Shown here: one piece after another, positions 45,931 through 63,149 of the stretch | How the letters are laid out: each line of letters opens with the position of its first letter | Numbering within the stretch: the stretch's first letter is position 1 | Assembly: GCA_035353175.1 (NCBI GenBank) | Contig: DAOPZC010000003.1 | Coordinates: 62,473-126,472, forward strand | DNA from: Kiritimatiellia bacterium | GTDB taxonomy: Bacteria > Verrucomicrobiota > Kiritimatiellia > RFP12 > UBA1067 | DNA: 64,000 nt | Direction: 5' to 3' | The notes under the pieces: generated by a model | The model's input: only the letters and a program-made list of their open reading frames with translations | Databases searched by the model: none | What the model was told of the DNA's origin: nothing | Translations under genes and position numbers: made by a program

Positions 45931-47799
45931 TCAAAAGAGGAAGAATAGTGTGCCTGAAATGATCACTGCGACCCCGTTTCCGGCGGCGTCCAACTGGAGG
46001 TAGATGTTGTTGCCCCTGATCGCGCTCTTTCCCTCGCCCAGCGAGAGACCGGATACGGGTTTCCAGCGCCGGCCGCCGACCACCCGCTCCTGACCGGTCA
46101 AGAAGACGTTGAACAAATCCCGCATCTGCGTCTGGTCGAAACCCAAGACCGGTTCATAAAGCGCAATCGCCATGCCGTCAGTCAGCGCATCGTACCACAG
46201 GGCCACCTCGTCCAGACGGCCAATGAATTTTCCTTCGTTATTGAACTCAAGCGGGTTCGTGTTGCCAAATCCCGTGCCGTGGTTGTAAGTCTGGCTCAGC
46301 TTCAGCACCCCGTCCACAAACTTCTTTGTTGTTCCGTTTGCGGTTGTGCCGCTGCCGTTGTCATAGGCGACGACAACCACATGGTGCCAAGTGCCATCAA
46401 TCTCGTTGCCGGAGGAGAAAAGCCTGTTCTGGTTGAACAGACCGCCGCCGCCAGCCGTATCGTACCGGACTCCGATGTTGATACTGCTGCTGTCGCGGTC
46501 GACGAGCCACCCGTTGTGTACGGCGTTCTCGTCGCTTTTCCTGAGAAAGCGGGACCAGCTCGGGGTGTTGGTATACATTTTCACCCAAAAACTCAGCGTC
46601 ATGGCGTCGTTGACCGCCAGCGTCTGGCTGTTGGGCACGCTGATCTGGGCGAGAGTGTCGCCCCCCCCGAAGAAGGCCGCCGCTCGTCCGGTCCCGGTCG
46701 GGGTGTCATTGGTGAACGCCACGTTGGACTCGACCGTGCCGTCGTTGCCGAAGCCGGAACGGTCTGAGGCGTCCTCGCCGTCGAAGGTCCAGTAACCGAC
46801 GAGATCGACCGCGGTGGTGGCAAGGTTGGTCGAGGCCACGCCTTTGCCGGCGGCGTCAAGCTGCAGGTAGTATTCGTTGCGGTTGGTCCACACGAAGCTC
46901 TGACCCTCGCCCAACAGCAGGTTGCTTACCGCGTGCCATTGCCGCTCGCCAATCGTGGCCGGCACGCCGCTGGTGTAGACGTTGAACAGGGTCTGCATCT
47001 GCGTCACATCGTACCCGCAGATCGGGCGATAGAGCGCGGTCGCCATCCCGTGGTTCAGCGCCGTGTCCCAGACCGCCACGTCATCCATGAGACCATCATA
47101 CTCGCGGGCACCTTCTTGAAAGCTGCGGCCCATGATCAAGTCGGCGGTGTTATCAAATCCACCGGTGTGGAAATACGCGCCGTTGTTGACTGCGCGCACA
47201 CCGTTCAGCCAGACGTTGGCCTTCCCGTTATTCAAAGAGAAGACGATGTGGTTCCACGCGCCGTTCCAAGCCGAGCCGATGGCTGTCGATTGGTTGTTGG
47301 TGGCCGTGTCGATTCGGAGCACGGCGGTGGCGCCGGCATTGTTGCGCTGGATCTCGAACCCGTGCGAGCCCCCGTTATCCTTGTTGATGACGCGCAGCCA
47401 AGGGCTCGGGTCTGCCGCGTTCGCCTTCATCCAGAAGGACACGGTGACCGTTCCTCCGGTGAATGAAAGGGAATCGGCATGGGGGATCTGAACATACGAC
47501 CCGGTGTTGTCGACCCCGTTAAACGAAATCGAGCGCGTCGAGGGGATTGTCGCGGGCACATCGCCGGTGAAGACGGGGCCGTTGACCAGCGCCCCGTCGT
47601 TGCCGTAACCGGAACCGTCCGACGCGTCGTCGGTCTCGAAGGCCCAATAGCCGACAAGATCAGCCGCGGCTTGGCTTGCGGTGAGCAGTGTGAGGCAGAG
47701 AAGGCCGGCGACAGCCCTACACCCCGGCCCCTGATGCGCCTTCACGGCTTGGGAAGAGGAAGAGACCCTACACGCACTGTGGTGATGTCGTTCGAACAT
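45931..47799 (-). CDS. secreted protein with two tandem LamG/concanavalin-A-like lectin domains
   Basis: Shine-Dalgarno AAGGAAGGAG. Two ~280-aa repeats, each starting DLVGYW(A/T)F(E/D)(T/G)(D/E)DASD.SG.GNDG and containing ...FW(M/V)K...WNH.V... and ...DDVAVWD / DEVALWYDALT, the LamG (laminin-G/pentraxin-like) signature. Confidence 0.75.
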   Translation of the reverse strand: MFERHHHSACRVSSSSQAVKAHQGPGCRAVAGLLCLTLLTASQAAADLVGYWAFETDDASDGSGYGNDGALVNGPVFTGDVPATIPSTRSISFNGVDNTGSYVQIPHADSLSFTGGTVTVSFWMKANAADPSPWLRVINKDNGGSHGFEIQRNNAGATAVLRIDTATNNQSTAIGSAWNGAWNHIVFSLNNGKANVWLNGVRAVNNGAYFHTGGFDNTADLIMGRSFQEGAREYDGLMDDVAVWDTALNHGMATALYRPICGYDVTQMQTLFNVYTSGVPATIGERQWHAVSNLLLGEGQSFVWTNRNEYYLQLDAAGKGVASTNLATTAVDLVGYWTFDGEDASDRSGFGNDGTVESNVAFTNDTPTGTGRAAAFFGGGDTLAQISVPNSQTLAVNDAMTLSFWVKMYTNTPSWSRFLRKSDENAVHNGWLVDRDSSSINIGVRYDTAGGGGLFNQNRLFSSGNEIDGTWHHVVVVAYDNGSGTTANGTTKKFVDGVLKLSQTYNHGTGFGNTNPLEFNNEGKFIGRLDEVALWYDALTDGMAIALYEPVLGFDQTQMRDLFNVFLTGQERVVGGRRWKPVSGLSLGEGKSAIRGNNIYLQLDAAGNGVAVIISGTLFFLF

Positions 47800-48224
47800 T
47801 GCGATTACTCCTTCCTTAGTCCGTGCGTTCCGAACCTAATACATCGCCATTTTAAGGCTTCCGGCGTATGCCGTCAATGCTGGGGGTTGCTGAGGGTCGC
47901 GGCAGAGGGTTGCGAGGACGGGCGCATCCTTGAGTCAGGCGGCTGATGCCCCGTCCATAGGGAGTCGATCAAGATAAGCGTGTTGGAATAGGAGCATCGA
48001 AATCGGCATCGGGATCGAATACCTTGCGATTCAATCACGATAGGAACCACGCTGGACTGCTCAAAATGGACGATTCCGATCCCGATATCGATAGCGATTT
48101 GGAGGGAGAGAAGACTGTCGGCATGGGCTGGCTAAGGAAAGAGAGAGGACGGAGTTGCCGAAACCAGAAAACAGAAATCAGTTCAGGCGCATGGTCCTCG
48201 AACGCTGAGACGCGAAACCGGCAG

Positions 48225-48245
48225 GGCGGTCTCGCCGAGACCGCC
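48225..48245 (-). terminator. candidate terminator hairpin downstream of the LVIVD-repeat gene
   Basis: GGCGGTCTCG/CGAGACCGCC is a near-perfect palindrome ~100 nt after the stop at 48341. The following U-tract is weak (GGTTTCG). Confidence 0.35.
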
Positions 48246-48340: not shown

Positions 48341-50440
48341 CTATTTCTGCAGCAGCACGCCGGCGTAACCGCAAGGGATCACCACCTTGCCGGCGTGGAA
48401 ATCGGCGATGTCCGGATTGCCGGAGAATTTCCAAGCGGTCAGCAGCGCGGGACGCTCGGCATCCGTGAAATCGTAAAGCGCGGCGCGACGGTCGATGCGG
48501 CTGGTGAAGACCACCCGCTTGCCATCCGAACGCGGAATGCCGTTGATCGCGCCACGCCCTCCGTCGCCCGGGAACGCCGCCGGCAGCTTGAAGAATTTCC
48601 ATGTGCTTCCGTCCGCCGGGTCGCCTTCGCCAGGCCGGAGCAGCACGTAACTGCCGTGCGCGCTGGCGATGGACAGCCCGTCGCGGAAGGTGCAGATCCC
48701 ATTCGAAAGGCTCAGCCGGTTCACCGTCGTCTCAACGCTTTGCCGCGGCGCGGGAAGGGCGGAGAGGTCAAACCACTTGACGGAGGTGTTGGCGTTGTTG
48801 AACGCGAAATGACGTCCGTCGGGCGAACCGTCCGCGAGGTACTTGTCCCACCCCGGACACGATCCGCTGTGGAGCGCGTGCTTGAACTCCGGCAACGTCC
48901 GGACGTCATACAGCTCGAACCCGCGCCGGTCGGAGCAGAACAGCCAACCCGGCACGGCCGGCTGGACGTAAAGCGCCAGGTTCTTTTCACCGGAGATTCT
49001 CGGCAGGCGCGCGACTTCCTTGAAGCGCGCCGCGCCGTCCAGCTCGTACACGCCGAAGCCGTCATGTCCTTCGGCCGTGTACAGGCGGTCCCCTGCCACC
49101 TTCACATCGAACACCTGGTCGTGCCCCGGCAGTTTGGCGAGCTCCTTGAGCCCGCCGTTGTTCGGCAGAATCTGCAGGGCATAAAGCCCCGCGTCGCCGC
49201 AGGCGGCGTAGACCACATCGCCCCTCACCGCGACGCCGCGCGCCTGGCCGACGTCGCGCGGCTTCCACACGTGCCAGGCGGACGCGTCCACGGAATACGG
49301 TTCGCGGGAGGACGCGTTTTGGGGCGGCGCGCCGCGGTCGAACGGCTCCGCCTTCGCGCGCGGACACGGAATCGCGAATACGCCCGCGCCGTTCACGGCC
49401 GCGTACACGACGCCGTCGGCCACAGCCAGGGATCCGACGCAATCGCTCGGCCACTCCGGATGCTTCGGGTTCGGCGAAACCCAGCGGTCGAGCGTGCGGG
49501 GATTGGCTTTGTCCGAGATGTCCACGGCGAACACGCCGTTGTGCGTCTGGGCGGCGACCAGCAGGTCGCCGGACGTGCGGGGCGTCCACATGTCGAGCCC
49601 GCGCGCGTAGAACGGCGGATAGTCCACGCGGCCGACGCGTTTCGGATGCGCCGGGTCCGCGACGTCATAAATATCGAGCCCGTGCCCCATGCCGCCGCCG
49701 TCGGCGGGGCCGCCGAAACGTTTCATCTCGGAGGTTATCACGCCGCCTGACACCTTGCGGTGCTTGGAATGGTGTCCCGTAGCGGCGTACAGGTACTTGC
49801 CCTGCAGCCACACGCCGTCACCGTAACCGTAGAGTTCCACATGGTCGGTCTGGCGGATGGCCTTCATATCGTGCGCGTCGAAGACGGTGACGTACGCCGA
49901 TCCCCAGTCGCCGGAATAAAGCCACCCGTCGCGGTAGACGACGCTTTGGGACTCGTCCGTCTTACGCATCGCGATATGGCGCGGATGGTCCGGATCGGAA
50001 ACGTCGATGAACTCCACACCGTTCTGGCGCTGCCCGAGGAAGCAGACGTCGCCCGCGACGTCCACGCCGGTCGCGAGTTCGCAGCAGTCGAAACGGGAAC
50101 GGATACGCGGCTTTTGCGGCTTCGTCGCGTCGACGATCCACAGTCCGTATTCGCGCGTGGAGACATACGCCATCCCCTTTTGCACGGCGATCTGTCGGAC
50201 TCCGCCCAAGCCGTCCACCTCGCCGAGTTTCTGCGGCGCAAGCGGTTTCGAAACGTCGTAGACAGACAAACACGAGCCTGCGCCCGCATACAGCTTATCG
50301 CCCTCGAGGCACAGCGCCATCGCCTTGTCGCCGATTCCTTCCACCCGGAACGCCGCGCCGAAAACTTTTACGTCTTCGGCCTTCGCCACCGCCAAAAACG
50401 CCACCGCGAACGAAATCAAAAACGCCACCACTGTCTTCAT
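48341..50440 (-). CDS. secreted LVIVD-repeat beta-propeller protein
   Basis: Shine-Dalgarno AAGGAGG; signal peptide. Repeated blades of the LVIVD type (G.AYVS..E.GLWIVDATKPQKP; DIYDVADPAHP; GVFAVDISDKANP; GFELYDVRTLPE). Confidence 0.75.
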   Translation of the reverse strand: MKTVVAFLISFAVAFLAVAKAEDVKVFGAAFRVEGIGDKAMALCLEGDKLYAGAGSCLSVYDVSKPLAPQKLGEVDGLGGVRQIAVQKGMAYVSTREYGLWIVDATKPQKPRIRSRFDCCELATGVDVAGDVCFLGQRQNGVEFIDVSDPDHPRHIAMRKTDESQSVVYRDGWLYSGDWGSAYVTVFDAHDMKAIRQTDHVELYGYGDGVWLQGKYLYAATGHHSKHRKVSGGVITSEMKRFGGPADGGGMGHGLDIYDVADPAHPKRVGRVDYPPFYARGLDMWTPRTSGDLLVAAQTHNGVFAVDISDKANPRTLDRWVSPNPKHPEWPSDCVGSLAVADGVVYAAVNGAGVFAIPCPRAKAEPFDRGAPPQNASSREPYSVDASAWHVWKPRDVGQARGVAVRGDVVYAACGDAGLYALQILPNNGGLKELAKLPGHDQVFDVKVAGDRLYTAEGHDGFGVYELDGAARFKEVARLPRISGEKNLALYVQPAVPGWLFCSDRRGFELYDVRTLPEFKHALHSGSCPGWDKYLADGSPDGRHFAFNNANTSVKWFDLSALPAPRQSVETTVNRLSLSNGICTFRDGLSIASAHGSYVLLRPGEGDPADGSTWKFFKLPAAFPGDGGRGAINGIPRSDGKRVVFTSRIDRRAALYDFTDAERPALLTAWKFSGNPDIADFHAGKVVIPCGYAGVLLQK

Positions 50441-50482
50441 TGTTCTTCCTCCTTACCGCACACCTGACACCCCGTCATTCCA

Positions 50483-52930
50483 TCATCGTTTCGCGGCCTG
50501 CTGCTGCCGAAGCGTCCCGAGCTCTTGCCGGAACCGTTCGAAGAACAAGTCCGCGCGCTTGTTTTCGTCGGCCCACTTCTCGCTGTTGCCGATGAAATAG
50601 AGCCGCGTCCGGCACGCGTCGATCGTGTCTTTGAACTGCGTGGCGTCGCGGGCGAGCACGTCGCCGCTGAACACCTCCACCACGTCGGCCTTGCGCCGCA
50701 GGCTGAACGTGCGCTCGCCGGCCGCGCGCGTGTGGATCGCCAGAAAACTCTTGTCGGCGTAAACGATCTCGTCGGCGTCGCAGAAAAGATGGCAGCCGGC
50801 GCGGCGGGCGATGCCGCGCAGGAGATCGGCGGGCGCCACCACCGACCCGATCCAGATGTCCGTGGCCTTCGAGGTGCAGCGCCTGACCATGGCGGGCTGG
50901 CCGCCCTCTTCGAAACGCGCGAGGACCTCTCCCTCCTCCGACCCGTAGAACCGTTCCGGCAGGTCGCGCGCGGCAGGAACTTGCTGTTTGACGGCCCCGC
51001 TCGCGGGATCAGTCACCCATTCCGGCCGCTCGAAGCTGCCGAAAGCCCGCTGGGGATCGAACCCCTCGAAGGCGCGCGCCCCGGCCTCGGTCAGCTTCAT
51101 GTTCAGCTTGCGCCGCTGGCCCGCCTCGGAATTCAGCGTGAAGCCCAGCAGATCCTTCGTGTATGCGACATCCCGCTCGGGAACCCGGTCCGGATTGAAC
51201 ACGCCGGGCGCGAACATCCACACCAGCACCGCCCCTCGGCGGCGCAGCCGTTTCTCAATCAGCCGGCGCTCGGCATCGCTCAGGCTGAAACAGTTGAGCA
51301 TCAGATACAGCTTGTAGCGCTTTGCATCGCTTGCGAGGATGTCGTCCAGCTCGTAGTAGTCCACCGGCGCGCCCAGGCGGCACGTCTCCTGCACCTTGAA
51401 CGCGTCGATCAGCGACGTCGTGACCGGCCAGGGAGGTCCGGTCAGGATGCTGTCGAGGTCCACCACGGCCGCGATATCCGTATCGCTTGTCCGGTCAAAG
51501 CCCATCGCGGCTTCGCCGCAGTGCTGCATGCGGTCGAACAGCGCGAGGACCGGCTCGTGGTGATACCACTCCTTGCCCATCTGGAACCACCAGCCGTTGC
51601 CGCCCTCGCAGAGCTGATGGGCGAACTCGCGCTGCAGGCAGGCCTGCGTTTCTTCGAGGCTCGGCGGCCGGCCGTACATTGAAGGATTGCCCGGCGCCGG
51701 CTCGGAGAAGTTGGTGCGGATGTCCGACTCGCTGATCCAAAGCTTGCCGTGCTGCTTGAGGCTGGCCATAAGGAAGCGGATGCAGGCGTGCTCGCCGGGG
51801 CCGCGGCGGTTGTACTGGGGCGGGCCCGACCAGAAGTCCACGTCCGGCGAGCGCAGCAGCTCTTTCAGGGTCGCCTGGCCGCCTTCGAGCAACCAGTGAT
51901 TCTGCAAGTAACCGTGGAACATGCCGACCAGCTGCTCGCGGTTGCAGGCCTGCTTCACGGCGTGCGAAAAGATCAGCAGGCTGTCCTCCATGACCTTGTT
52001 GTGCACATAGTAGTAGTCGCGGTTGCGCTGGCCCTTGTCGGCGCCCCAGAACACGCCCGCCTCGGTGGCTTTGCGGCTGAGCGGATCGGGCGGCAGCGCG
52101 GTATCAAAGTCGACCGCGGGATCGTTCCAGGCCGCTCGCAGCTTGCCGACGTCGCCGCCGTATTTGACGCGCAGATAATTGCGGAACGCCTTCAGCATCG
52201 GCTTGGAGAAGTCCAGGGCATACTTGTCGTGGTCGTAGTCGCCCCAGTAGTACCACTCCTCCGTGCCGCCGCCGCAGATGAAGTAGCCGATGATGTTCTT
52301 CGAATAGGCCGACTGCCGGACATGCGTGACGTAGTTGAAAAGCGCCTCGGCCGTTTTCTGCCGCCACACCCCGGAGGCGAAACTCGGGTAGCCGCGTTCC
52401 TCCAGCGGCCGGTCGGTCATGGCATACCATTTGGTGAAATGGTCGCGGGCGCCGTCGTTGAACGTGAGCGTCTCATCCGGATAGTCGCGCGCAAAGTTCC
52501 GCGGGTTGCAGAGATAGAGCCGCAACAGGATGCGCGCGTTCGGCACGCGCTCAAGGAAACGGGCCAGTTGCCCGTCGAGCCGTTTGAACGTCTCCTCCTG
52601 CTCGCCGGGCCACCCGACGCTGCCGACCATTTCGAAATGGACCGGGAAGTCGCGGTCCGCGATCTGCCCGATCTGCTCCAGCGTTCCCGCGCAGCGCGTG
52701 TAGATCATCGGCCCGTAAGGCTTGCCGTCGATCACAAGGGTCGGCACGCCCTGCACGGGCTTGACCCGCGCGATGGACTGGGGCCGGTCGGTGGGCTGCG
52801 CCTTGAAGGCCGGCAGCCGGGCGTCGCTGCCGGGCAGAAAGCCGACGTCAGAGGCCCGCGCCTCGGCGGCCGCCAGCGCGCATGATAGAAAACACAGGCC
52901 GAAGGAAAAGGGCAACGCATGTTTCTTCAT
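50483..52930 (-). CDS. secreted GH42-like glycoside hydrolase
   Basis: Signal peptide. FSKPMLKAFRNYLRVKYGGDVGKLRAAWND matches the GH42 'A..FR.WL..KYG....LN.AWG' block. WYYWGDYDHD and a TIM-barrel-like N-terminal half. Confidence 0.7.
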   Translation of the reverse strand: MKKHALPFSFGLCFLSCALAAAEARASDVGFLPGSDARLPAFKAQPTDRPQSIARVKPVQGVPTLVIDGKPYGPMIYTRCAGTLEQIGQIADRDFPVHFEMVGSVGWPGEQEETFKRLDGQLARFLERVPNARILLRLYLCNPRNFARDYPDETLTFNDGARDHFTKWYAMTDRPLEERGYPSFASGVWRQKTAEALFNYVTHVRQSAYSKNIIGYFICGGGTEEWYYWGDYDHDKYALDFSKPMLKAFRNYLRVKYGGDVGKLRAAWNDPAVDFDTALPPDPLSRKATEAGVFWGADKGQRNRDYYYVHNKVMEDSLLIFSHAVKQACNREQLVGMFHGYLQNHWLLEGGQATLKELLRSPDVDFWSGPPQYNRRGPGEHACIRFLMASLKQHGKLWISESDIRTNFSEPAPGNPSMYGRPPSLEETQACLQREFAHQLCEGGNGWWFQMGKEWYHHEPVLALFDRMQHCGEAAMGFDRTSDTDIAAVVDLDSILTGPPWPVTTSLIDAFKVQETCRLGAPVDYYELDDILASDAKRYKLYLMLNCFSLSDAERRLIEKRLRRRGAVLVWMFAPGVFNPDRVPERDVAYTKDLLGFTLNSEAGQRRKLNMKLTEAGARAFEGFDPQRAFGSFERPEWVTDPASGAVKQQVPAARDLPERFYGSEEGEVLARFEEGGQPAMVRRCTSKATDIWIGSVVAPADLLRGIARRAGCHLFCDADEIVYADKSFLAIHTRAAGERTFSLRRKADVVEVFSGDVLARDATQFKDTIDACRTRLYFIGNSEKWADENKRADLFFERFRQELGTLRQQQAAKR

Positions 52931-52995: not shown

Positions 52996-53065
52996 CGGCT
53001 CGACGCAGCCTCGCCCTCCATGTAAAAACGGTCGAATTTCTGGAGGGCGAGGCTGCGCCGAGCCG
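52996..53065. repeat. long near-perfect inverted repeat (25-bp stem, 20-nt loop)
   Basis: Left arm CGGCTCGACGCAGCCTCGCCCTCCA (52996-53020), loop tgtaaaaacggtcgaatttc, right arm TGGAGGGCGAGGCTGCGCCGAGCCG (53041-53065); 24/25 complementary. It lies in the 190-bp spacer between two minus-strand genes. Confidence 0.6.
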
Positions 53066-53119: not shown

Positions 53120-56100
53120 CTAGCGCACGTCGGCCGCCAGCTTCGCGATCTCGTCGGCGGACAGCACGCGCCGATAGACGCGCACGTCGTCGAGGCAGCC
53201 GCGGAAGCGCGCGCGGTCCATGTCGGCGCTGTGCGCGCCGACGGTGATGGCGTTGCCGGGATTGATGAAGCCGCGGCGCTCGAGCGTGCCGACATCCTTG
53301 CCGTTCACATAGAGACGCATGACCTTGTTGTCGAAGGTCGCGGCCACGTGCGACCACGCGTCGACGGGCAGCGGCTCCGGACCGATCAGCGAATGGCTCC
53401 AGTTCTCGCGCGGCACCTGCCAGTCGGGCCGCCCGTTGCCGAGCCCGAGGCGGTAGCCGTCCGTGCCGGTCGACACCGTGTTGAGCATCCAGCGGTCGCT
53501 CTGTCCCTTTTCGGAGGGTTTGCACCAGAGCGCCACGGTCACGCCGCCAGGGCTGAAGAACGGCGCGGGGACAGTCGCGGTCGCGCCGCCCTCGCCACAG
53601 CGCAGCACCTGACCGCCGCGGCCGGCTTCGCGCACGACGCCCTCGCACTTGAGATTGCAGCCGTTCGGCGAGGCGTCCGCCAAGAGACCGTCGGCCGTCT
53701 GGGACTCGAAGGTCCAGTCGGCCAGCAGGTCGCCGGTGATGCGGATCGACTGCCACGGCATGCGGCTGCCGAAGCCGGCGCGCACGGCCTCGTAGCGCCG
53801 CTGCGGCGGAGGCAGCCCCACGTCTTCGGGAATGATGTCGGTCACCGCCTCCGGCGCCCAAGCGGTGCAGAAGACGCGCTTGATGGCGTTGACGAACGTG
53901 AAGCCCGTGCCGGTGGTCGGCTCGATGTAGTGGCCCTCGCCGAACTCGGTCCAGTTGTCGAAGACGACGATCTTGCTGTCCCAGCGCCCCGCCGGCTTGG
54001 CGTCGACGAGCGCCTTGGCGTCGCGGCAGGCGGCCTCGAAGTTCTCGGCCTTGGGGTCTTTGATGTAGTTGCCGTTGCCGCGTTTGACGCGGCCCCACGG
54101 GCGGTCGTCGCGGCCCATCATCACGTTCGGGATGTCCGGCACGGGGGCCGTGCTGGCGGCGCGGTCGATCCACGTTTGCTTGTAGCGGCTGAGCACGTCC
54201 GCGTGATCGCGGTAAGAGAGCCCCGCCGGGTCCTCGCCGACCGTCTTCAGGCCGGAGGGCGTGACCCCGTAGCCGGAGACCGCGTCCCACCCGCTGGCGG
54301 CGATGTCCGCGCCGAGCTTACCCTGCGCCGCGTCCATGCAGGCGATCACGCGCAGGCCGCTGAAGCCGGCCCTGCGGCACTGCTCGCGCATCTTGTCGAG
54401 CGCGACCTTGGTCTTCTCGGGCCCGCCCAGCTGGGCGAGCATGACGCGCGGCTGCCACACGAAGAGGACCGGCTTGTTCTCGATCTTGAGGTACGAGGGA
54501 TGGGTGAAGTAGTTCTTGATCCAGAACGGCAGCACGTTGTCGAGCAGGTCGGCCTCGTCCTTCACGCCTTTGGCGCAGCCGTTCTCCCACATGATGGTGA
54601 AGGTGAACTGGTCGCGGTATTTGGCGTTGAGGAGTCCCTCGTGGATCGCGTGGCCGAGGCTCTGGCTGATCGTCGGCTCGAAATCGGCGCGGTACCAGCA
54701 GTAGATGAAGCCGTTGATGCCGTGGTCGAGCGCGTACTTGATGTGCCAGTCGGCCACCTCGGGCGTGCCCTCGTCATACCAGCCGATGGCCGGACGTTTC
54801 TCCGGCCACGGCTCGATCCTCTTCCAGCCCCAGTGCGTGCCTTCCTTCCAAAGCGCGCAGTAGTGCATCAGGCTGATATAGTCGGTTTTGGCCGGCTGCG
54901 GCTGCGGCACGTAGCCGGTCTTGGTCATCTCGGGCCACGGCTCGACCTTCAGCGCGAGCTCCTGCACGCTCGTCTCCGCGCCCTTGGAGGCGATTGCCAC
55001 GCGGACGGTGTAGGTGCCGGGACGCTCGGCCCGGATGTGCCAAGTCGCCAGGTCGAAGTCATCCATGCCCAGCCATGCGATGTTCCGCTTCGCGCCGCCG
55101 ATGACCTTGACACCCTTAGGAACCTCAAGCCGCGCGGTGATCCCTTCGGCTTCGCCGCCGACGTTCTGGATGCCGGCCACCACGCTCTCCTCGCGGCCGG
55201 GACGCAGCTTGGCGCGGCCGGCGGCGAGCGAGCGGATGTAGAAGACGGGGGTCCCGATCGGCCGATCCGCCAAGGCCAGCTTGCGGATGCGGACCGGCGC
55301 CGAGACGCCGGAGAAGCTCACCGCGAGGCGACGGAGCTTGCCGGTCCAAGCGTCGGACATCGTGCCGGAAACGACCGTGGGCCGCCCGCCTGACTGCGGC
55401 TGGAAGCTGATCGAGCCCGAGCCCGTGTCGGTCGTGAAGTCGAGCGTGCCGGTCACGCCGCGCCCGCCCGCCTCCACGTCGAGGCAGAGGAACGGATACG
55501 GCGCGAGGTCGACGGACAGCGTCGGGCTCACCAGCATCGCCGTGGCGCCGGGGAAGTCGACGGCGAGCGCGGCCTTCTCCTCTTTGCAGGCCGCGCCGTT
55601 CTTGGCCTGCCAGCCGGCCCACGCCGCGGGGCCGCCCAACACGCGGGCCGCGCCTTGGCTTTCGGAGCCGCCGAAGAGAGAACGCCACAGCGAAGCGAAG
55701 AAGCCGGGCTTGGATTCGGCGGATGCCTCCTCAGCGGGCAGGCCCGCGAGGAGCGCCGCGCGTTCCAGGCTCGGGTTGAAGAGGTCGAGACTCGCCAGCT
55801 CGCCCGCGATCGGGCCGACCTGCACGGGCTTGGAGCCCGGATTGATCCGGCCGAAGCGCGGCTGGCTGAAGGTCTCGCCGTTGATGGTCATCTCCATCGA
55901 CTGGCCGGTCCACGCCGCGCGCACGTCGTACCACGTGTTCGTCTGAATCGCCGGGCCGCGCAGCCGGGTCTCCCACTTGCCCTCGATCTGGACGAAGAAG
56001 ACCAGGTTCCCGCCGTCGCCGGGATTGTCCACGCGCAGCAGATACTCGCCGTCCTTGACGACCAGGTTCTGGGCCCAGCTCTTGTGCGTGTCGAGGCGGA

Positions 56101-56311
56101 AACGGCAGCCGATTTCCAGCCCCGGCCGCAGGCGCAGCTCCGGGCGGTCGGCGGCTTCGACCGGCTTGCCGGCGGAGAGGCGCTTGTCCTGACGGTCGAG
56201 CGCGAAAACGGGCTTACCGGCCGGCTCCGCAGCATCCGCGCGCGGCGCGGCACAGGTTAAAAGCGCCAAAGAAAGCGTGAAAACAGTCCCGATGTTTCTG
56301 ATTGCCTGCAT
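53120..56311 (-). CDS. secreted multidomain protein: N-terminal LamG-like domain, central WbsX/GH99-like glycoside-hydrolase domain, C-terminal LamG-like domain
   Basis: Shine-Dalgarno GAGGGGA precedes the ATG at 56311 (MQAIRNIGTVFTLSLALLTCAAPRADA). Central IGWYDEGTPEVADWHIKYALDHGINGFIYCWYRAD matches the WbsX-like (PF14307, GH99-related) family. C-terminal ...FFSPGGVTVALWCKP...WSHVAATFD...LYVNGKDVG...DDVRVY is LamG-like. The track extends 142 codons upstream of the real start. Confidence 0.75.
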   Translation of the reverse strand: MQAIRNIGTVFTLSLALLTCAAPRADAAEPAGKPVFALDRQDKRLSAGKPVEAADRPELRLRPGLEIGCRFRLDTHKSWAQNLVVKDGEYLLRVDNPGDGGNLVFFVQIEGKWETRLRGPAIQTNTWYDVRAAWTGQSMEMTINGETFSQPRFGRINPGSKPVQVGPIAGELASLDLFNPSLERAALLAGLPAEEASAESKPGFFASLWRSLFGGSESQGAARVLGGPAAWAGWQAKNGAACKEEKAALAVDFPGATAMLVSPTLSVDLAPYPFLCLDVEAGGRGVTGTLDFTTDTGSGSISFQPQSGGRPTVVSGTMSDAWTGKLRRLAVSFSGVSAPVRIRKLALADRPIGTPVFYIRSLAAGRAKLRPGREESVVAGIQNVGGEAEGITARLEVPKGVKVIGGAKRNIAWLGMDDFDLATWHIRAERPGTYTVRVAIASKGAETSVQELALKVEPWPEMTKTGYVPQPQPAKTDYISLMHYCALWKEGTHWGWKRIEPWPEKRPAIGWYDEGTPEVADWHIKYALDHGINGFIYCWYRADFEPTISQSLGHAIHEGLLNAKYRDQFTFTIMWENGCAKGVKDEADLLDNVLPFWIKNYFTHPSYLKIENKPVLFVWQPRVMLAQLGGPEKTKVALDKMREQCRRAGFSGLRVIACMDAAQGKLGADIAASGWDAVSGYGVTPSGLKTVGEDPAGLSYRDHADVLSRYKQTWIDRAASTAPVPDIPNVMMGRDDRPWGRVKRGNGNYIKDPKAENFEAACRDAKALVDAKPAGRWDSKIVVFDNWTEFGEGHYIEPTTGTGFTFVNAIKRVFCTAWAPEAVTDIIPEDVGLPPPQRRYEAVRAGFGSRMPWQSIRITGDLLADWTFESQTADGLLADASPNGCNLKCEGVVREAGRGGQVLRCGEGGATATVPAPFFSPGGVTVALWCKPSEKGQSDRWMLNTVSTGTDGYRLGLGNGRPDWQVPRENWSHSLIGPEPLPVDAWSHVAATFDNKVMRLYVNGKDVGTLERRGFINPGNAITVGAHSADMDRARFRGCLDDVRVYRRVLSADEIAKLAADVR

Positions 56312-56489: not shown

Positions 56490-58805
56490 TTACTGCACGC
56501 GAGGCGGCGGGACCGCCTGGCCGGCGCACTGGGCGGCCTGCTCCTGCCGGCCGTACGTGCCGTAGAACGCGGCATTGCCGTCGAGCCACACGCAAAGCCG
56601 CAGCCGGTCGTCATCCGACAGCCGAATGCGGCCCCTGTGGCTGTTGCCGTCGAGAACCTTGAGCAGCGGGCTCTCGTCGGCACCCATATGGCCCGGCAGG
56701 GTGACGGCCTGAGCGATGCTCTTGTCTCCCCATTCATACCACCGCACCTGCCCTTTCAGGCTGTTGTACGCTTTGCTGAACTCGCCTTCGGGCGTGCCGG
56801 TCAGAATGAGCGTGCCGCGCTGCGGCCCTTTCGCGCCGTCGTGACAACGCACGCAATGGCGGTCGAGCACCGGCTGCACCAGCCGCGGAAAACACCACGG
56901 CCGCGTACCGTCCGGCCCGGCGAGTATCTTCGACAGCGCATGGCGCGACGCGAGCGGCTGACGATCCGGCGGCGGGCTCTCTGGCCGCTCGTGGCAACCC
57001 ACGCAGCTTCGGCGCTCCCCGGGCTGCAGATAGACCGCGCTGCGCATCGTGTGAACGGCCCGGCCTGACGCGTCCACCGCCTGAAAGAAAAGCGGCCGGC
57101 GCGCAGGCGCACGAAAGAAGGCCGAGCCGTCGGACTCAACCGGCACCGTGCCCAGCAGCATACGCGCACACTCCGCATTGGCGTAGCCGATGCGCGGCTG
57201 GTTGGCCACGTGCGTCTCGCTCTTGGGCAGCAGCTGAAAGATCCGCAGGCTGCGAACCGGACGGTCAGACGGCAGCGGCGTCAGGCTGGCACGCACGTCG
57301 CTGAGGACAAGCTCCCCCTCGTCGCCCAAAGCCGGGTCACACGAACGGGTCGGTGCCGGCGGTTTGGGGCGCGGGCCCAGAGGCGTCGGATACATCGACG
57401 AGATCCCCGGCGCGCGATACAGCAGCTCCATGTTTCCGAAGCGGTCGAAGTAGTAAAGGCCCGTCTCGCCGTCGCGCACGACCTTCGGCCCCATGCCCGG
57501 CAACGGATCGAAGCTGAACGAGACCAGGTAATAGTCCTCCGACAGCGGACAGGGGCTGTGGAAATAGCTGTCGGGCCAGCCGGCGGCCTCCGGAAAACAG
57601 ACCTCCGGCGTGAGCACTTCCAGCGAATCGAAATTGTCCTCGCCGCTCTTCGGGTCGAGGCTGGTCCGCGAGGGATCGACCACCACCAGCGAGCCGCCCA
57701 CGGCGGCGTGATGCGCGCCCGCCACAAACACGATCCGGTTCGAGCCGGGAATCGCCCGCGGCTGATAGCAGGCGTTGATCCGCATGGTGTAGTTGCCGAA
57801 GAGAATGCTCGGGCTGGTGCCGTCCGGGTTGCTCGTCCAGATACCGTGAAACTGGGCGGCCGAGCGATCGACGTAGTCCCAGCGGCTATAGGCGATGCGC
57901 CCGTCGGCGAGCACGGACGGATGCCACTCGTTCGTCTCGTGCCAAGAAAGCGTCTGCACGCCGCTGCCGTCGCCGTTCATCCGGTGCAGGGTGTAGGTCG
58001 GCAGCGGCTCCCACGGATTGTGGCATCGTCCGAAGCCGCCGCGCCGCGTCGACATAAACGCCACGCCGCCGTCCGGCAGCGGGCACGGATCGAAATCGTC
58101 GTTCGGCCCGTCGGTCAACTGCCGCAGCCCCGAACCGTCGGTCTGCACGGTGTAGAGGTGAAAGCAGCGACGCTGAGGCGAACGGAAGTCGGGCTTCTCC
58201 GGCGCGCGCTCGGCATAGGCGAAATAGATTGTGTGCCCGTCCCAGCCCAGCGAAAGCGTCGTGAAATTGCCGCGCGGAAGCCGCCCGGCGATCAGATCGC
58301 GCGTCCTCAGCGACCGTCCTGGCGTCTCCAGCACGTACACGCCGCCGCCCGCGATATCGCCGTAGTCGTAATAATAGCCCAAGTATTCGTGCAACATTTG
58401 GGTGACGAACCGCCGTCGCTGCATGAAGACCACCGGACGAGCACCCAGCAAAGGATTCTTCAGCGCCGCCTCGCGGCCAATCCAGCGGATGCCGCGGTAC
58501 AGGGACAGCCGCTCCGCCTCGGGGAGCGTCGCGGACTTCGCCGCTGCGGTTTGTAGTTTCGCCAGGTCGGCCCGTTCGCGGGTGAGCTCCAGAGGCCGGG
58601 GGGCGCGACTGAGCCCGTCCAGCAGGCGGGCGACGCGCTGACACGCGAGCTGGATCGCCTCGGGCGACTGTGCGAGGCGACCGGCCCGTTTCTCCTGCGC
58701 CGCCCAGTCCGCCTCCACGGTCGCGCGAAAGGCCGCGTCATCGTCAACCGCGCCCGCCAGTACCGCAACCGACACGAGGGCGACCAGAATTATTTTCCCG
58801 TTCAT
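56490..58805 (-). CDS. secreted TolB/PD40-type beta-propeller protein with a C-terminal di-haem (2x CXXCH) cytochrome-c-like region
   Basis: Shine-Dalgarno AAGGGAAGAGG precedes the ATG at 58805 (MNGKIILVALVSVAVLAGA). PD40-like blades (LTDGPNDDFDPCPLPDGGVAFMSTRRG; WHPSVLADGRIAYSRWDY; TSNPDGTSPSILFGN). C-terminal CVGCHE and CVRCHD are haem-c attachment motifs. Confidence 0.75.
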   Translation of the reverse strand: MNGKIILVALVSVAVLAGAVDDDAAFRATVEADWAAQEKRAGRLAQSPEAIQLACQRVARLLDGLSRAPRPLELTRERADLAKLQTAAAKSATLPEAERLSLYRGIRWIGREAALKNPLLGARPVVFMQRRRFVTQMLHEYLGYYYDYGDIAGGGVYVLETPGRSLRTRDLIAGRLPRGNFTTLSLGWDGHTIYFAYAERAPEKPDFRSPQRRCFHLYTVQTDGSGLRQLTDGPNDDFDPCPLPDGGVAFMSTRRGGFGRCHNPWEPLPTYTLHRMNGDGSGVQTLSWHETNEWHPSVLADGRIAYSRWDYVDRSAAQFHGIWTSNPDGTSPSILFGNYTMRINACYQPRAIPGSNRIVFVAGAHHAAVGGSLVVVDPSRTSLDPKSGEDNFDSLEVLTPEVCFPEAAGWPDSYFHSPCPLSEDYYLVSFSFDPLPGMGPKVVRDGETGLYYFDRFGNMELLYRAPGISSMYPTPLGPRPKPPAPTRSCDPALGDEGELVLSDVRASLTPLPSDRPVRSLRIFQLLPKSETHVANQPRIGYANAECARMLLGTVPVESDGSAFFRAPARRPLFFQAVDASGRAVHTMRSAVYLQPGERRSCVGCHERPESPPPDRQPLASRHALSKILAGPDGTRPWCFPRLVQPVLDRHCVRCHDGAKGPQRGTLILTGTPEGEFSKAYNSLKGQVRWYEWGDKSIAQAVTLPGHMGADESPLLKVLDGNSHRGRIRLSDDDRLRLCVWLDGNAAFYGTYGRQEQAAQCAGQAVPPPRVQ

Positions 58806-59006: not shown

Positions 59007-59205
59007 CATCACTGCGCCGTCCTCGCTACCAACGGCCACATCGGCAAGCTGACAAACGTGCTGAAAATGGCCTCGACAAATCTACTTAGCGCGTACACTC
59101 TCCGGCCAACACCACCATAATGCGTTCAAAGGCCGCCAGGTTCCTGATCTGCGCAAGTCGACTCAGGTCCCTCTCGACATAGGTCATGAAGGCGTAATTT
59201 TCAAG
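59007..59205 (-). pseudogene. decayed fragment of a DUF4143/COG1373-type AAA+ ATPase gene
   Basis: Minus-strand frame A (59205-59086): LENYAFMTYVERDLSRLAQIRNLAAFERIMVVLAGECTR*. Frame +1 (59084-59007): RFVEAIFSTFVSLPMW... Together these mirror the conserved COG1373 segment '..TYLERDV..L..IRDL..F.RFLRLLA...GQ... / ..LEDAFLVF.LPPW..', broken by a stop and a frameshift. No intact ATPase N-terminus is present. Confidence 0.45.
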
Positions 59206-59296: not shown

Positions 59297-61840
59297 TCAC
59301 CGCCGGACCGTCAGCTCGCGGATGCCAAAGGCAGGCAGCGTCAGAGCATCGCCGCCGCAGCTGACCGCGCACGGCGTCTCGCCGAGGTTGTTCACGACCG
59401 CTCGGCACTCGCCCTGGCTGACCCGGAAGGCCGTCACGCGCGCAGACGGCGCGTCGAGCGCGATCAGGCTCTGCTGCGCGGGCCACTCTCCGTTGCCCGG
59501 CCGGACGCGGAACAGCGGCACGCCGACGCGCAGCCGGTCCGCAGCCGCGGCCACCTCCGCAGGGGGGCACAGCACAAGGCCGAAGCGGTGCTCGTACGCG
59601 CCCAGAAACGGGTCGCCGCCCGACGTGATCAGGTGGTCGGCGTAGCCGCTGGGAAGAATTTTGCACTCGGGCCGCTTGTCCGCCCGGCCCTGGATGGAGG
59701 CCCCCAGGCTCGCCGCCACAACGCCGTCCAGCGGCGCGACGCGGAACGACTGGTTCCCGCCCAGCGCCACCACGGCGAAAGCCGCATCGCCGGAAGCGAT
59801 GGAGGCGAAGCGTTGCGCCGCGATGAACGACGGCTCGGGATTGGCGTGCTCGATCGTTGCGTAAGGGATGTCGTAGCGGACGCGGCCGGGCCAGCCGCGA
59901 AACTCCAAGAGCAAGCCCGCGGGGTCGTACTTGCCCTTCCCGATCCGGCGCGGCATGTCGACCTGGACGCAGGCCGTCACCTCGACGCGGTCCAGCCGGA
60001 GACCGATCACCAGCCGGATCCAGACGGCCCACGCCAGCTCGGTGAAGACCTCCAGCTCGGGCCCGAACGGCGTCTCCCGCACGCGAGCCGTCGCGCGGGC
60101 CCAGTCCGGCCGCACCTCTTCCGCCGCTGCGGCGCCCGAAGGATCGCTGAGCTTGAAAGGCGCGACCGCGATCTCGATCTGGCGCGAGCCCTCGGCCACA
60201 AGCAGGCGTCCCTCCGTCAGTCCCGCGCGCTGGCCTTCGGCCGACACCTCGCTGCCCGCCCGCCACTCCGCGGCCGGCTGCGCGCCCGGCTGCTCCCGCA
60301 ATCCGAGCAGGCAATAGCCGTAAGCGGGAAGCTCGACCCGCGCGGAGGCAGTCCACTGTCCCGCGCGGCAGGCGAGATCCCCCGGCAGCGGCGAACCGTC
60401 CGCGGCCACGAGCGCCAGCGGGCCGTCGACCGGGAGCGAGACCTCCGCCGTGCGGGAGGGCGCGGGGTTCAGCGCGAGCACGTAGCCCGCGCAGCCCGGC
60501 GCGGGCGTGCGGAGGCGCGCCGCCACCTGCTGCGCGAAGCGCGCCAGCAGCTCGTTCGAGTAGGCGCGTGACGCGTCCAGCACGGTCTCGCGGTGAAGCG
60601 TGCGCGGCGTCCAGGGAAACCAGCCGCTGGAGTCGGAGTTGAGGCCGATCAGCGCGTGGTGCCAGGCGCGCGAGAGCACGGTCGGCTCGCCGCCCAGGGC
60701 CAGGCAAAGGGCTTCGGTCTCCGGGAACTCGCCCACCTCTTCGAAGCGCGTGTCCCATGGGTTGTCGGGCGGCGTCGTCCACGCTTGCTTCAGCGGCACG
60801 TCCACCGGTCCGAGGCGGTGAAGCGCGGCCGCGGCATGGGCAAACCCCGCGGCGCGCAGGGCGTCCAGCGTTTTCACGGCGTGCCCGTGCCAGCTCATGT
60901 CCATCGGATGAGAGGTCCAGCGCGAGAAGCTGGGGCTGGGCTCGCGGTCCTCCTGCGCCTGGCCGAACGGATGGGGCGCCGCGCACGTGACGTGAATGCC
61001 GACCTCCTGCGTGTACCGCTCGACCGTGGTCCAGCGGATGATTTTGCCCTTTTGCGCCAGACGCGCGATCTCCGCGACGTAGGCATCGATGTCGCCAAGT
61101 TGCTCGAAGTCGCCGCCGGCCATGATGAAACTGCCGTCCGCGTGCGAGTCGTAATACGCCTCAAGCTGGCCGAGCCGGATCGTGCGGAGGTCGAGGGGAA
61201 AAACGTCTACCGCGCTGCCGTCGATTCCCTGCACGCGCCGCGGCCGGTCCCAGCCGTCGGGCATAACGATCAGCCGCCGGACGCCGATCTGGTTCATGAC
61301 ATACGGCAGCTGGGGATGAAACACAATCTCCTGGGGGAAGAAGGCCGAGCAATCGGGCTGCAGCTCCCGGCGCATCAGCTCCATGCTGACGCGGCTCGCG
61401 ACCAGGTCGGACTCTTCGTCCGACGCGAGCGCGTGGCTCGCGGCGTACTGGCACCCCACCATCGCGATCTGCCGGCGGTCCACCAGCGGCTTCAGCTCTT
61501 CCAAAAACCCGGGCGCATAGCGCTTCAGGCTGAGCAGCGTCAGCCCCGGGAAGTCGATGTGGGCCGTCACCTCCGGATGGGCCTTGAGCGCGCGCAGGCC
61601 TGTGGCGTAGATGCGGGGGAACTTCTCGCGGATCTCCTGCTTGGTGTAGCGGTCGTAGCACATGTTGCCGTGCAGCAGGAACGAGAGGTAAACGGTCTTG
61701 GGCTTCGCGGGCTCCGGCGCGGACGCGGCCGACAGCGGGACGCCGACAGCCGCAAGCCCCGCCACCCCCTGCAACACGCGCCTCCTGGAAACGCACCCGC
61801 ACGTCTGGAAAATCCCCCGACTCCGCGACTGCTCAAACAT
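59297..61840 (-). CDS. Tat-exported putative glycoside hydrolase (GH38/GH57-like N-terminal domain)
   Basis: Shine-Dalgarno AGGAGGGG precedes the ATG at 61840. Tat-like SRRRVLQGVAGLAAVGVPLSAASA. N-terminal VYLSFLLHGNMCYDRY...IDFPGLTL resembles the metal-binding N-domain of GH38/GH57-type enzymes. The remainder carries no signature I can name. Confidence 0.6.
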   Translation of the reverse strand: MFEQSRSRGIFQTCGCVSRRRVLQGVAGLAAVGVPLSAASAPEPAKPKTVYLSFLLHGNMCYDRYTKQEIREKFPRIYATGLRALKAHPEVTAHIDFPGLTLLSLKRYAPGFLEELKPLVDRRQIAMVGCQYAASHALASDEESDLVASRVSMELMRRELQPDCSAFFPQEIVFHPQLPYVMNQIGVRRLIVMPDGWDRPRRVQGIDGSAVDVFPLDLRTIRLGQLEAYYDSHADGSFIMAGGDFEQLGDIDAYVAEIARLAQKGKIIRWTTVERYTQEVGIHVTCAAPHPFGQAQEDREPSPSFSRWTSHPMDMSWHGHAVKTLDALRAAGFAHAAAALHRLGPVDVPLKQAWTTPPDNPWDTRFEEVGEFPETEALCLALGGEPTVLSRAWHHALIGLNSDSSGWFPWTPRTLHRETVLDASRAYSNELLARFAQQVAARLRTPAPGCAGYVLALNPAPSRTAEVSLPVDGPLALVAADGSPLPGDLACRAGQWTASARVELPAYGYCLLGLREQPGAQPAAEWRAGSEVSAEGQRAGLTEGRLLVAEGSRQIEIAVAPFKLSDPSGAAAAEEVRPDWARATARVRETPFGPELEVFTELAWAVWIRLVIGLRLDRVEVTACVQVDMPRRIGKGKYDPAGLLLEFRGWPGRVRYDIPYATIEHANPEPSFIAAQRFASIASGDAAFAVVALGGNQSFRVAPLDGVVAASLGASIQGRADKRPECKILPSGYADHLITSGGDPFLGAYEHRFGLVLCPPAEVAAAADRLRVGVPLFRVRPGNGEWPAQQSLIALDAPSARVTAFRVSQGECRAVVNNLGETPCAVSCGGDALTLPAFGIRELTVRR

Positions 61841-61931
61841 ATCCCCTCCTGTTTTAAACATTTCTCTGATCATATAGAACCTTTCACAGTCGCAGCGCAT
61901 ACCGCGCGGCAATGCAAGCGGAGGCAGCGGC

Positions 61932-63149
61932 TCAGCGCGTCTTCTCCGCCAAAGGCGCAACGGGCGTGACCGACAGGTCCATGCGGCCGTCACCGCGGTT
62001 GATCGTGCAGATGATGTACTTGTCCCCGCAGACAAACTGCGGGTGCGGGTCGGGGTGGAGCTTGCTGGGTTTGTCTTTAGTGGTGAAGGCAGGCCGTTCG
62101 GCATAGAGGAAGACTTCCTTCTTCGTCTCCGCGTTGTAGAAGCCCACCTGCCACGCGCAACCGCGATACCAAGGGCCGACGCTGTTGTCGTAAGTGAAAT
62201 AGCGCCGGTCCCGCGTCATCGTAGCGTGAGCCGCGTGGACGGGGGCGATGCGCCGCTGCTGGCCGGTGGCCAGGTCGTAATAGATGACGCCGTATTCCTT
62301 GCCGTGGCTGCAGTAGTAGAAACCCAAGCCGTCGTCGGCCCAGTATTCGTGGGTGGCGTAGTTGTTCATCGGCGGGACCACGCGTCGTTTGCCGTTGGGC
62401 TCGACCAGCAGCAGGCGGGGATAGACGCCGTCGATGTTCTGGATGCGGTGCTCGACTTTGTCGGTCCCCGTCCACCGGGTTTCGTGGGCGCACAGGGCCA
62501 GCCGGCCGTTCACGGGATTGACCTGCCCGTGGTTCACGCAGACGGATTCCTCGCCCCACTTCTCGAATCGGCCGGTTTTAATATCCAGCATGCCTTGGAT
62601 GAAGCGGTCGTCCACGCGCGCGTCCATAAACACCTGGGCGCGGTCGGGCGTCAGCGTCACATGGGTCGCATAGCCTGACACGTTGGTGCCTTCGGCCTTG
62701 AGCTGTGCCGGGATCTCGCACAGCTTCTCCTTCGCGGGCGCGTCGGCCCGCAGGTTCAACTTGTAAAACCCGCCGGACTCAAACCAGTACAGGAGGGCCG
62801 ACTCCGTATCGAGGAAGGGAATGCTGCCGCGGATCTCCAGCGGCCTGACCTCATCCTTGAGCAGATCGGCCAGTGCGAAGGTTTTCTGGTTGCGTCGATC
62901 GCCGCCCGACACGTCGAACACGATAAAGCGTCCGTCCTCGGTCATCGACTTCTGGGTGAAATAGAGGCTCTGCTGATTCGCTGCGACCCGCGTTTCGAGG
63001 ATGTAGGAAACGACGCCCGAGGCGGGCTCGACGTATTTGCGGAAAAGCTTCGAGGTCTCCGGAGTGTACACCGCCAGCGGGAGAGACTCCACCGCATGGC
63101 ACGACACCGCAAAGAGTGAGAACAGCCACGGCAGCAGACAAGACTTCAT
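61932..63149 (-). CDS. secreted oligogalacturonate lyase-like (PL22-like) beta-propeller protein
   Basis: Shine-Dalgarno GGGGAGG precedes the ATG at 63149. Signal peptide MKSCLLPWLFSLFAVSCHA. About 405 aa with ...HPDPHPQFVCGDKYIICT... and repeated propeller blades, resembling the Ogl/PL22 family. The assignment is tentative. Confidence 0.5.
   Translation of the reverse strand: MKSCLLPWLFSLFAVSCHAVESLPLAVYTPETSKLFRKYVEPASGVVSYILETRVAANQQSLYFTQKSMTEDGRFIVFDVSGGDRRNQKTFALADLLKDEVRPLEIRGSIPFLDTESALLYWFESGGFYKLNLRADAPAKEKLCEIPAQLKAEGTNVSGYATHVTLTPDRAQVFMDARVDDRFIQGMLDIKTGRFEKWGEESVCVNHGQVNPVNGRLALCAHETRWTGTDKVEHRIQNIDGVYPRLLLVEPNGKRRVVPPMNNYATHEYWADDGLGFYYCSHGKEYGVIYYDLATGQQRRIAPVHAAHATMTRDRRYFTYDNSVGPWYRGCAWQVGFYNAETKKEVFLYAERPAFTTKDKPSKLHPDPHPQFVCGDKYIICTINRGDGRMDLSVTPVAPLAEKTR

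Follow-up and report, generated by a model that had tools for sequence, protein, structure and literature searches.

Does a run of same-strand genes for exported, glycan-active proteins constitute one dedicated polysaccharide utilisation locus? The question is raised by positions 45931-63149 of a 64,000-nucleotide stretch of DNA (the window) from a metagenome-assembled genome (MAG) of a Kiritimatiellia bacterium, where seven genes, here named G1 to G7, follow one another on the minus strand. A first reading made from the letters of the DNA (the sequence-only reading) had proposed a single utilisation locus of the type known from Planctomycetota-Verrucomicrobiota-Chlamydiota (PVC) bacteria. Comparison with related loci, together with the anatomy of the run and a contig of a nearly identical strain, speaks against this proposal for most of the run; gene order recurs only for G4, its LVIVD partner and in part G3. 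We suggest, with a probability of roughly 0.55, that the region is a lineage-specific mosaic carbohydrate-active enzyme (CAZyme) gene cluster with a small core, G4 and G2 with G3 loosely attached, and not a conserved operon. The genes and their products are:

G1, 45931-47799, minus strand: 622 aa, tandem LamG_3 protein
G2, 48341-50440, minus strand: 699 aa, LVIVD-repeat beta-propeller
G3, 50483-52930, minus strand: 815 aa, GH42-like protein (GH, glycoside hydrolase family)
G4, 53120-56311, minus strand: 1063 aa, LamG-WbsX(GH99-like)-LamG protein
G5, 56490-58805, minus strand: 771 aa, two-haem propeller of the HZS_alpha type
G6, 59297-61840, minus strand: 847 aa, GH57/GH38-like protein with a twin-arginine translocation (Tat) signal
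G7, 61932-63149, minus strand: 405 aa, beta-propeller like polysaccharide lyase family 22 (PL22)

Gene order in relatives and organisation of the run

The comparison covered 59 related loci and drew on 19 genome loci anchored on G6 and on 40 metagenome loci anchored on G4, plus locus L001. An LVIVD gene adjoins G4 in 9 of the 16 loci where G4 is at least 77% identical and in 0 of the 16 where its identity is 74% or lower. In L001, L031, L033, L035, L036, L040 and L041 the G2 orthologue is the next gene downstream of G4, often at a distance of about 44 nt, and a G2 paralogue (34% identical) lies upstream of G4 in L032 and L043. G3 joins G4 and G2 in one other close lineage, L001, where the order is G4-G2-G3; in the window G3 stands between G4 and G2. 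A frame of a Gfo/Idh/MocA gene, the G4-G2 pair and a GH39-like gene is retained in L031 and L033, and G3, G1 and G5-G7 therefore appear to have entered a variable region as lineage-specific insertions.

For the remaining genes the associations are sparse. A G1 orthologue follows G2 in L035 only, and G5 is found ahead of G4 only in contigs of the same strain. Among the 19 G6-anchored loci, G7 lies near G6 in one (L006, with one gene between them), a Gfo/Idh/MocA gene is a neighbour of G6 in L017, and no gene of the present locus recurs beside G6. Moreover, a G6 that is 89% identical and has full flanks resides among housekeeping genes in L007 (helicase, GYF, 2-oxoacid dehydrogenase). A uronate-pathway context was not found for the G7 homologues, the neighbours of which are GH20-like, GHL6 or kinase/binding-protein genes, and G4 relatives at 42-68% identity have different neighbours, e.g. 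GH95 and CBM9/CBM4_9 proteins. The sequence-only reading had made its single locus depend on the conservation of gene order, the mark of an operon; in the relatives order is kept for G4 with an LVIVD gene, sometimes joined by G3 (L001), and not beyond.

The non-coding parts of the run were also inspected. The intergenic gaps measure 91 nt (G7-G6), 491 nt (G6-G5), 178 nt (G5-G4), 189 nt (G4-G3), 42 nt (G3-G2) and 541 nt (G2-G1), and the features found in or near them are:

63235-63207, minus strand: promoter-like site upstream of G7 (consensus scan)
58903-58875, minus strand: promoter-like site upstream of G5 (consensus scan)
47877-47849, minus strand: promoter-like site upstream of G1 (consensus scan)
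52996-53065, minus strand: hairpin in the G4-G3 gap, a 96% complementary inverted repeat with a 25-bp stem and a 20-nt loop
58806-59296, minus strand: G6-G5 gap of 491 nt, with a strain-level synteny breakpoint

The promoter scan returned only these three sites on this strand. RNA folding of the G4-G3 gap gave a z score of -5.1; the hairpin has no U-tract and hence is not a canonical intrinsic terminator, and it might serve in RNA processing or stabilisation or in a terminator-like way, or be a scar left when G3 was inserted. Relatives without G5 retain some of the G5-G4 gap sequence ahead of G4, suggesting a control region that belongs to G4 itself. In a contig from a 99%-identical strain (L025) the match to the window stops at position 59095, inside the G6-G5 gap, and the contig carries, in place of G5 onward, a DUF4143 fragment and a helicase-like gene with AEP-TOTE/DEAD/ResIII/DUF559 domains (L025 13957-17465); the break at about 59095 looks like a strain-level insertion or rearrangement. 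The G2-G1 gap is about 120 nt long in L035, the sole relative with this adjacency. In the window this gap also holds an imperfect inverted repeat (47996-48098) with 22-nt arms, 82% complementary and 59 nt apart. We infer that the run is probably transcribed in several units, at least three (G7-G6; G5 onward; G1) and probably more.

How do these data bear on the origin of the run? One dedicated PVC-type polysaccharide utilisation locus, with G1-G7 co-regulated for the use of one acidic or galactose-rich glycan (of rhamnogalacturonan, mucin or algal type), appears unlikely. Such a locus would be consistent with the uniform strand and the export of all products, with a lyase-like gene, three glycosidase-like genes and binding modules in one stretch and with the GH28-like and GH39-like genes in the left flank, yet gene order is lost even at about 90% protein identity and the run contains two gaps of about 500 nt, a hairpin and a strain breakpoint. 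Likewise, the L001 trio sits beside genes for an AraC-type regulator, PfkB, an aldolase and MR_MLE, a set typical of keto-deoxy-sugar/uronate catabolism, and fusions to GH88 occur among the G7 homologues; but there is no transporter or regulator within the 17 kb, and the folds imply differing linkages (beta-galactoside/alpha-arabinopyranoside-type, alpha-glucan/alpha-mannoside-type and uronate) with no one substrate.

We consider it equally unlikely that the genes share nothing except export, with a run of seven arisen by chance and G4-G2 merely an inherited neighbourhood. From about 10.5 kb on the window mostly encodes secreted hydrolase-type proteins on both strands, and with this density a run of seven same-strand genes is not remarkable; the unrelated contexts of the G6 and G7 relatives and the GH95 and CBM9/CBM4_9 neighbours of the G4 relatives (42-68%) fit chance juxtaposition as well. 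However, the LVIVD gene accompanies G4 in two configurations, as an orthologue downstream or a 34% paralogue upstream, and G3 is attached to the G4-G2 pair in two orders, which selection for linkage explains better than inertia.

The mosaic cluster with a G4-G2 core is thus the reading that we prefer, and several points weigh against it. Even where relatives show no synteny, the genes may be co-regulated in this strain, the narrow spacing of G7 and G6 (91 nt) and of G3 and G2 (42 nt), like the uniform strand, fits longer transcripts, and the promoter matches are weak (three found against 1.6 expected). In addition, many of the related loci are short contigs, so that some absences are uninformative, and L037, L038, L039 and L057 are probably from one species, which lowers the number of independent G4 observations.

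Gene models and predicted products

Proteins identical to G3 and G7 are encoded in a Kiritimatiellia bacterium MAG (locus tags PKM57_02155 to 02190), and six of the seven genes are annotated at NCBI as "hypothetical protein", the exception being G4 ("GH99-like domain-containing protein"). The window is GC-rich (about 65%), and codon-position GC was therefore used to distinguish genuine genes from chance open reading frames (ORFs); the seven genes form an unbroken co-directional run with GC at third codon positions (GC3) of 0.79-0.92, a strong coding signature. Independent JGI/ENA gene calls for same-strain contigs agree in length (405, 847/826, 771, 1063/1111 and 815 aa). For G4 a longer ORF reaches up to 56737, and this upstream extension has no signal peptide.

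The sequence-only reading had counted eight genes, all with signal or Tat peptides and good Shine-Dalgarno sites and with no SusC/SusD, TonB-dependent receptor or regulator genes among them. The eighth was sought in the 541-nt G2-G1 gap and rejected: the ORFs there are of 58-114 aa, with GC3 of 0.63-0.70 and second-position GC (GC2) of 0.50-0.56, and lack a coding signature, and the sequence of the gap is not conserved among relatives. The NCBI locus tags jump one number in this gap (PKM57_02160), implying an annotated feature, and the skipped tag may be the source of the eighth gene. The other claims fared better. A hydrophobic, signal-like N-terminal segment is present in all seven proteins, with a twin-arginine motif (SRRRVLQG) in G6, and a purine-rich Shine-Dalgarno-like stretch, AAGGAAGGAG in the case of G1, precedes every gene except G3. 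According to Pfam and NCBIfam no domains of SusC/SusD, TonB-dependent receptors, transporters or regulators are encoded in G1-G7. No structured RNAs or tRNAs were found in the window.

The earlier domain assignments (tandem LamG, LVIVD propeller, GH42-like, LamG-WbsX/GH99-like-LamG, PD40-cytochrome, GH38/57-like and PL22-like oligogalacturonate lyase) all recurred in our comparisons. Direct sequence searches against the PDB with G2, G3, G6, G7 and the WbsX domain of G4 were uninformative or empty, and for this reason family profiles and AlphaFold2 (AF2) models were needed. G3, G6 and G7 have no Pfam or NCBIfam match of their own, not even at E<=10.

In G4 the LamG modules (PF13385, 126.8 bits) flank a WbsX domain that scores above the gathering cut-off (PF14307, 63.4 bits versus 25.1), and the GH99 model remains below its own (PF16317, 16.7 bits versus 33). 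A literature search on WbsX/PF14307 as a hydrolase gave nothing useful. G2 matches the LVIVD repeats (PF08309, 56.8 bits) and no relative of it was found in the PDB; in the literature on LVIVD function no experimental role was found, the only relevant paper being the description of the repeat from 2004. The statement in the sequence-only reading that LVIVD modules are established as non-catalytic scaffolds was consequently not borne out. A relationship of G2 to the beta subunit of hydrazine synthase was considered and rejected, no sequence similarity to the 5c2v chains being detected. G1 has two LamG_3 (ConA-like) modules (PF13385, 120 bits, in two stretches), a repeated module of about 90 aa after each of them, and a hydrophobic C-terminal tail.

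For G3 the family profile matches GH42 structures (E 4e-6). The top 20 Foldseek matches of its AF2 model (pLDDT 88.8) are all GH42, the best being 3tts (E 7e-24, TM-score 0.58/0.68), followed by GH35, GH164 and GH151. The model displays the GH42 three-domain architecture, with a TIM barrel, a trimerisation domain and a beta-sandwich, in common with GH42 beta-galactosidases and alpha-L-arabinopyranosidases (PDB 3tts, 4uni and 5xb7). In the AF2 model an invariant Glu, E225, comes after predicted strand 4 and a second, E401, ends predicted strand 7; these predicted positions would be as expected of clan GH-A. The HMM alignment places the GH42 Asn-Glu (NE) acid/base motif on the non-conserved G230-D231, six residues downstream of E225. 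G3 differs from GH42 in an identity of only 12-14%, in having no match to PF02449 (E<=10), and in being exported; homologues of G3 at 28-33% identity do carry PF02449. Characterised GH42 enzymes are mostly cytoplasmic. Most of the close homologues of G3 (P0003-P0042) measure 1190-1420 aa and have at the N-terminus an extension of about 400 aa, which the 815-aa G3 lacks; a few also carry bacterial TSP3 repeats. In a Rosetta-stone test the extension was unlike any other gene of the locus.

G6 gave a weak profile match to the GH38 N-domain and a full-length Foldseek match of its AF2 model (pLDDT 85) to GH38 (E 4e-26), and its nearest sequence neighbours match the Pfam models of GH57 and of GH38 alike. 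G6 itself matches neither PF01074 (GH38) nor PF03065 (GH57), the latter being matched by the family members P0129 and P0252. The GH38 active site was not recovered: Q170-E171 occupies the position of the Asp in the PDTFGY motif of Ams1, the N-terminal motif is H-G-N instead of the GH38 H-x-D, and G6 has no HxD-type metal motif. In GH38 an Asp nucleophile goes with a His/Asp metal site, and in GH57 a (beta/alpha)7 catalytic fold bears a Glu nucleophile and an Asp acid/base. E171 and D244 are invariant in the family, and the motifs around them resemble what we take to be GH57 conserved regions 3 and 4. Judging from these residues and the model, G6 may combine a GH57-like catalytic core with GH38-like C-terminal beta domains. 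Compared with known GH57 (AmyC 2b5d, amylopullulanase 7e1y and TLGT 1k1w) and GH38 enzymes (2wyh and Ams1 6lz1), G6 is distinguished by its Tat signal, the missing metal motif and a tiny family known only from MAGs (48 representatives at E<=1e-30 among 1.84 billion).

Homologues 53-79% identical to G6 occur in MAGs of Acidobacteriota, Chloroflexota and Armatimonadota (L008 5350-12475, also L012, L020, L021 and L015), and in most of them the alignment to G6 begins past the signal-peptide region. Directly beside them is a gene for an orphan glycyl-radical enzyme assigned to the PFL2/glycerol-dehydratase family (275-300 bits, where the cut-off is 678), and genes for its radical-SAM activase, for a sugar transporter of the MFS type and for a regulator of the AraC/periplasmic-binding type adjoin the G6 homologue in the same loci. 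The combination of glycyl-radical enzyme, activase and sugar transporter may hint at a new anaerobic sugar pathway.

The family profile of G7 matches the oligogalacturonate lyase YeOGL (3pe7) over nearly the full length (E 1e-12). YeOGL R217, H242, H287 and H355 align to the invariant R245, H267, H308 and H369 of G7, which we take to correspond to the catalytic His and Arg and two metal-ligand histidines, and H353 aligns with D367. PF14583 (PL22) is not matched by G7 itself; 7 of the 27 family members match it, with a best E of 1.9e-9. Fusions to GH88 (unsaturated glucuronyl hydrolase) in 3 of the 27 members (P0194, P0214 and P0229) support a lyase role of the family. G7 shares with PL22 lyases (YeOGL 3pe7, Vibrio 3c5m) the full-length profile match and the conserved His and Arg, but has HPDPHP in place of Q-x-x-H-P-H-P, a signal-like N-terminal peptide (MKSCLLPWLFSLFAVSC) that does not agree with the cytoplasmic location of PL22, and no neighbouring Kdu/Kdg genes. 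Classical Ogl is a cytoplasmic enzyme with short oligogalacturonides as its substrates.

The fifth gene encodes a propeller with the middle domain of the hydrazine synthase (HZS) alpha subunit (PF18582, 83.3 bits versus 26.6), an export signal and haem-c motifs at 601 (CVGCH) and 651 (CVRCH), an architecture in line with the earlier label PD40-cytochrome. In the PDB G5 matches the alpha subunit of hydrazine synthase (5c2v, E 4e-10), yet it scores only 49.6 bits with the NCBIfam hydrazine_alpha model (NF052339), for which the equivalog cut-off is 800. On these sequence features we group G5 with the alpha-subunit homologues that were recently described from non-anammox bacteria. Homologues of the HZS alpha domain outside anammox bacteria occur in Planctomycetota and Desulfobacterota and are without assigned function (PMC12758564). 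G5 has their propeller, HZS_alpha middle domain and two haem-c motifs, and it differs from them in that no beta-gamma-like partner gene lies near it, in its host, a Kiritimatiellia bacterium, and in sitting among glycan-active genes. No cytochrome-c-peroxidase-like or second haem protein was found in the window. Another locus (L002) encodes a fusion of an HZS_alpha domain with F5/8-type-C carbohydrate-binding modules.

Flanking genes and the wider window

The genes bordering the run are:

63391-64000, cut by the window end, plus strand: Tat-signal Gfo/Idh/MocA oxidoreductase (PF01408, 86 bits; TRREFV motif)
43164-45878, plus strand: GH39-like gene, convergent with G1
41428-43173, plus strand: GH28-like gene
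40229-41413, minus strand: Tat-type Gfo/Idh/MocA gene, twin-arginine motif SRRKFI
38493-39869, minus strand: Tat-type Gfo/Idh/MocA gene, twin-arginine motif SRRSFL

The sequence-only reading had the locus flanked by Tat-exported Gfo/Idh/MocA oxidoreductases; this is correct for the right side (63391 on), and on the left the GH28-like and GH39-like genes intervene before the tandem pair. The composition filter had passed over the gene at 40229-41413, whose GC3 of 0.70 is below that of the genes around it. The right-hand gene is divergent from G7 and in NCBIfam comes closest, below the cut-off, to the BT_2158 glycoside 3-dehydrogenase family. The full contig (L024 1-9705) shows it to be followed by a gene for a 1199-aa ThuA-HEAT-F5/8-type-C protein and, further on, by genes for an MFS protein, glycerol-3-phosphate dehydrogenase, GDPD and an AraC/Peripla_BP regulator; beyond G7 it is about 5 kb to the nearest MFS gene and about 9 kb to the nearest AraC/Peripla_BP regulator. 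By analogy, the pairing of Gfo/Idh/MocA and ThuA genes to the right of G7 recalls 3-keto-sugar-forming systems.

Redox-assisted breakdown, in which G5 would serve the Tat-exported Gfo/Idh/MocA enzymes as electron partner in the periplasm and oxidative (3-keto-glycoside) cleavage would complement hydrolytic/lytic cleavage, is highly improbable, for although the three flanking Tat-type genes (the right-hand one with its BT_2158-type best match), the ThuA-domain protein, the two CxxCH motifs and export signal of G5 and the L002 fusion would suit it, no related locus has a conserved linkage of G5 and a Gfo/Idh/MocA gene, the NCBIfam matches are far under the family cut-offs, the non-anammox alpha-subunit homologues have no assigned function (PMC12758564), and the scheme is inferential throughout.

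Just upstream of the glycan-enzyme region lie genes for two large surface-type proteins, a 2907-aa protein with eight PATR (autotransporter-associated) repeats (27264-35987) and, after it, a 704-aa BspA-type leucine-rich-repeat protein (36234-38348). Two further genes are of the secreted glycan type, a 1176-aa ORF with no Pfam match (10562-14092) and a 1203-aa protein with CBM4_9 and GH42 domains (18345-21956); with these, the richness in glycan-type genes spans the whole window, beyond the 17 kb of the run.

Relation to known systems and significance

As a system the region is of a known kind, an ordinary PVC-type non-Sus CAZyme cluster. Like such clusters in Verrucomicrobiota, Kiritimatiellia and Planctomycetota it encodes exported hydrolases, lyases and binding modules without SusC/SusD, and its arrangement varies between strains; for comparison, one Planctomycetota strain has its fucoidan loci scattered and another has them concentrated (PMC11685898). 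It deviates from them in that the 17 kb contain no transporter, regulator or sulfatase and order is kept only for G4 and the LVIVD gene. A Bacteroidota-type polysaccharide utilisation locus is not indicated, since Pfam and NCBIfam gave no SusC-like or SusD-like domains in G1-G7 or in the flanks (38.5-64 kb), and the signature of a CAZyme gene cluster, a transporter or transcription factor inside it, was absent within 45931-63149.

With the mosaic cluster as the preferred reading, G1-G7 would be exported to the periplasm or the cell surface, six by way of Sec-type signals and G6 through Tat, where, to judge from folds and conserved residues, they would act on glycans or oligosaccharides. At the core, G4 would be a GH99-like/WbsX TIM-barrel glycanase with LamG binding modules and the G2 LVIVD propeller its partner, and G3 a GH42-like glycosidase of clan GH-A as a loosely attached third member. 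The other four would be independently placed additions: G7 a putative PL22-like, metal-dependent beta-eliminase on uronate-containing oligosaccharides, G6 a GH57/GH38-type alpha-glycosidase, probably retaining, G5 a predicted two-haem propeller like the alpha subunit of hydrazine synthase and G1 a candidate tandem-LamG binder.

At the protein level, G3, G6 and G7 form sister groups distantly related to GH42, GH57/GH38 and PL22, respectively, and the current Pfam and NCBIfam models do not reach them. We advance tentatively, and as a doubtful proposition when all its parts are taken jointly, that G6 represents an uncharacterised GH family, that G4 and the LVIVD protein form a two-component glycanase and that G3 and G7 belong to sister families missed by the models. 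The G6 family may join a GH57-type Glu/Asp active site to the multi-domain body of GH38 and be confined to uncultured anaerobes, and in a G4-LVIVD glycanase the propeller could have a catalytic or essential role.

Our findings imply that co-directional CAZyme runs in genomes such as this one should not be taken for utilisation loci without comparative or expression data. None of the results overturns current understanding; their worth lies in drawing attention to enzyme families that are poorly covered. The pairing of G4 with the LVIVD gene provides, to our knowledge, the first genomic handle on a possible role of LVIVD propellers, and G3, G6 and G7, "hypothetical" in the database, are good targets for enzyme discovery, with folds that were assigned confidently and candidate catalytic residues that are conserved.

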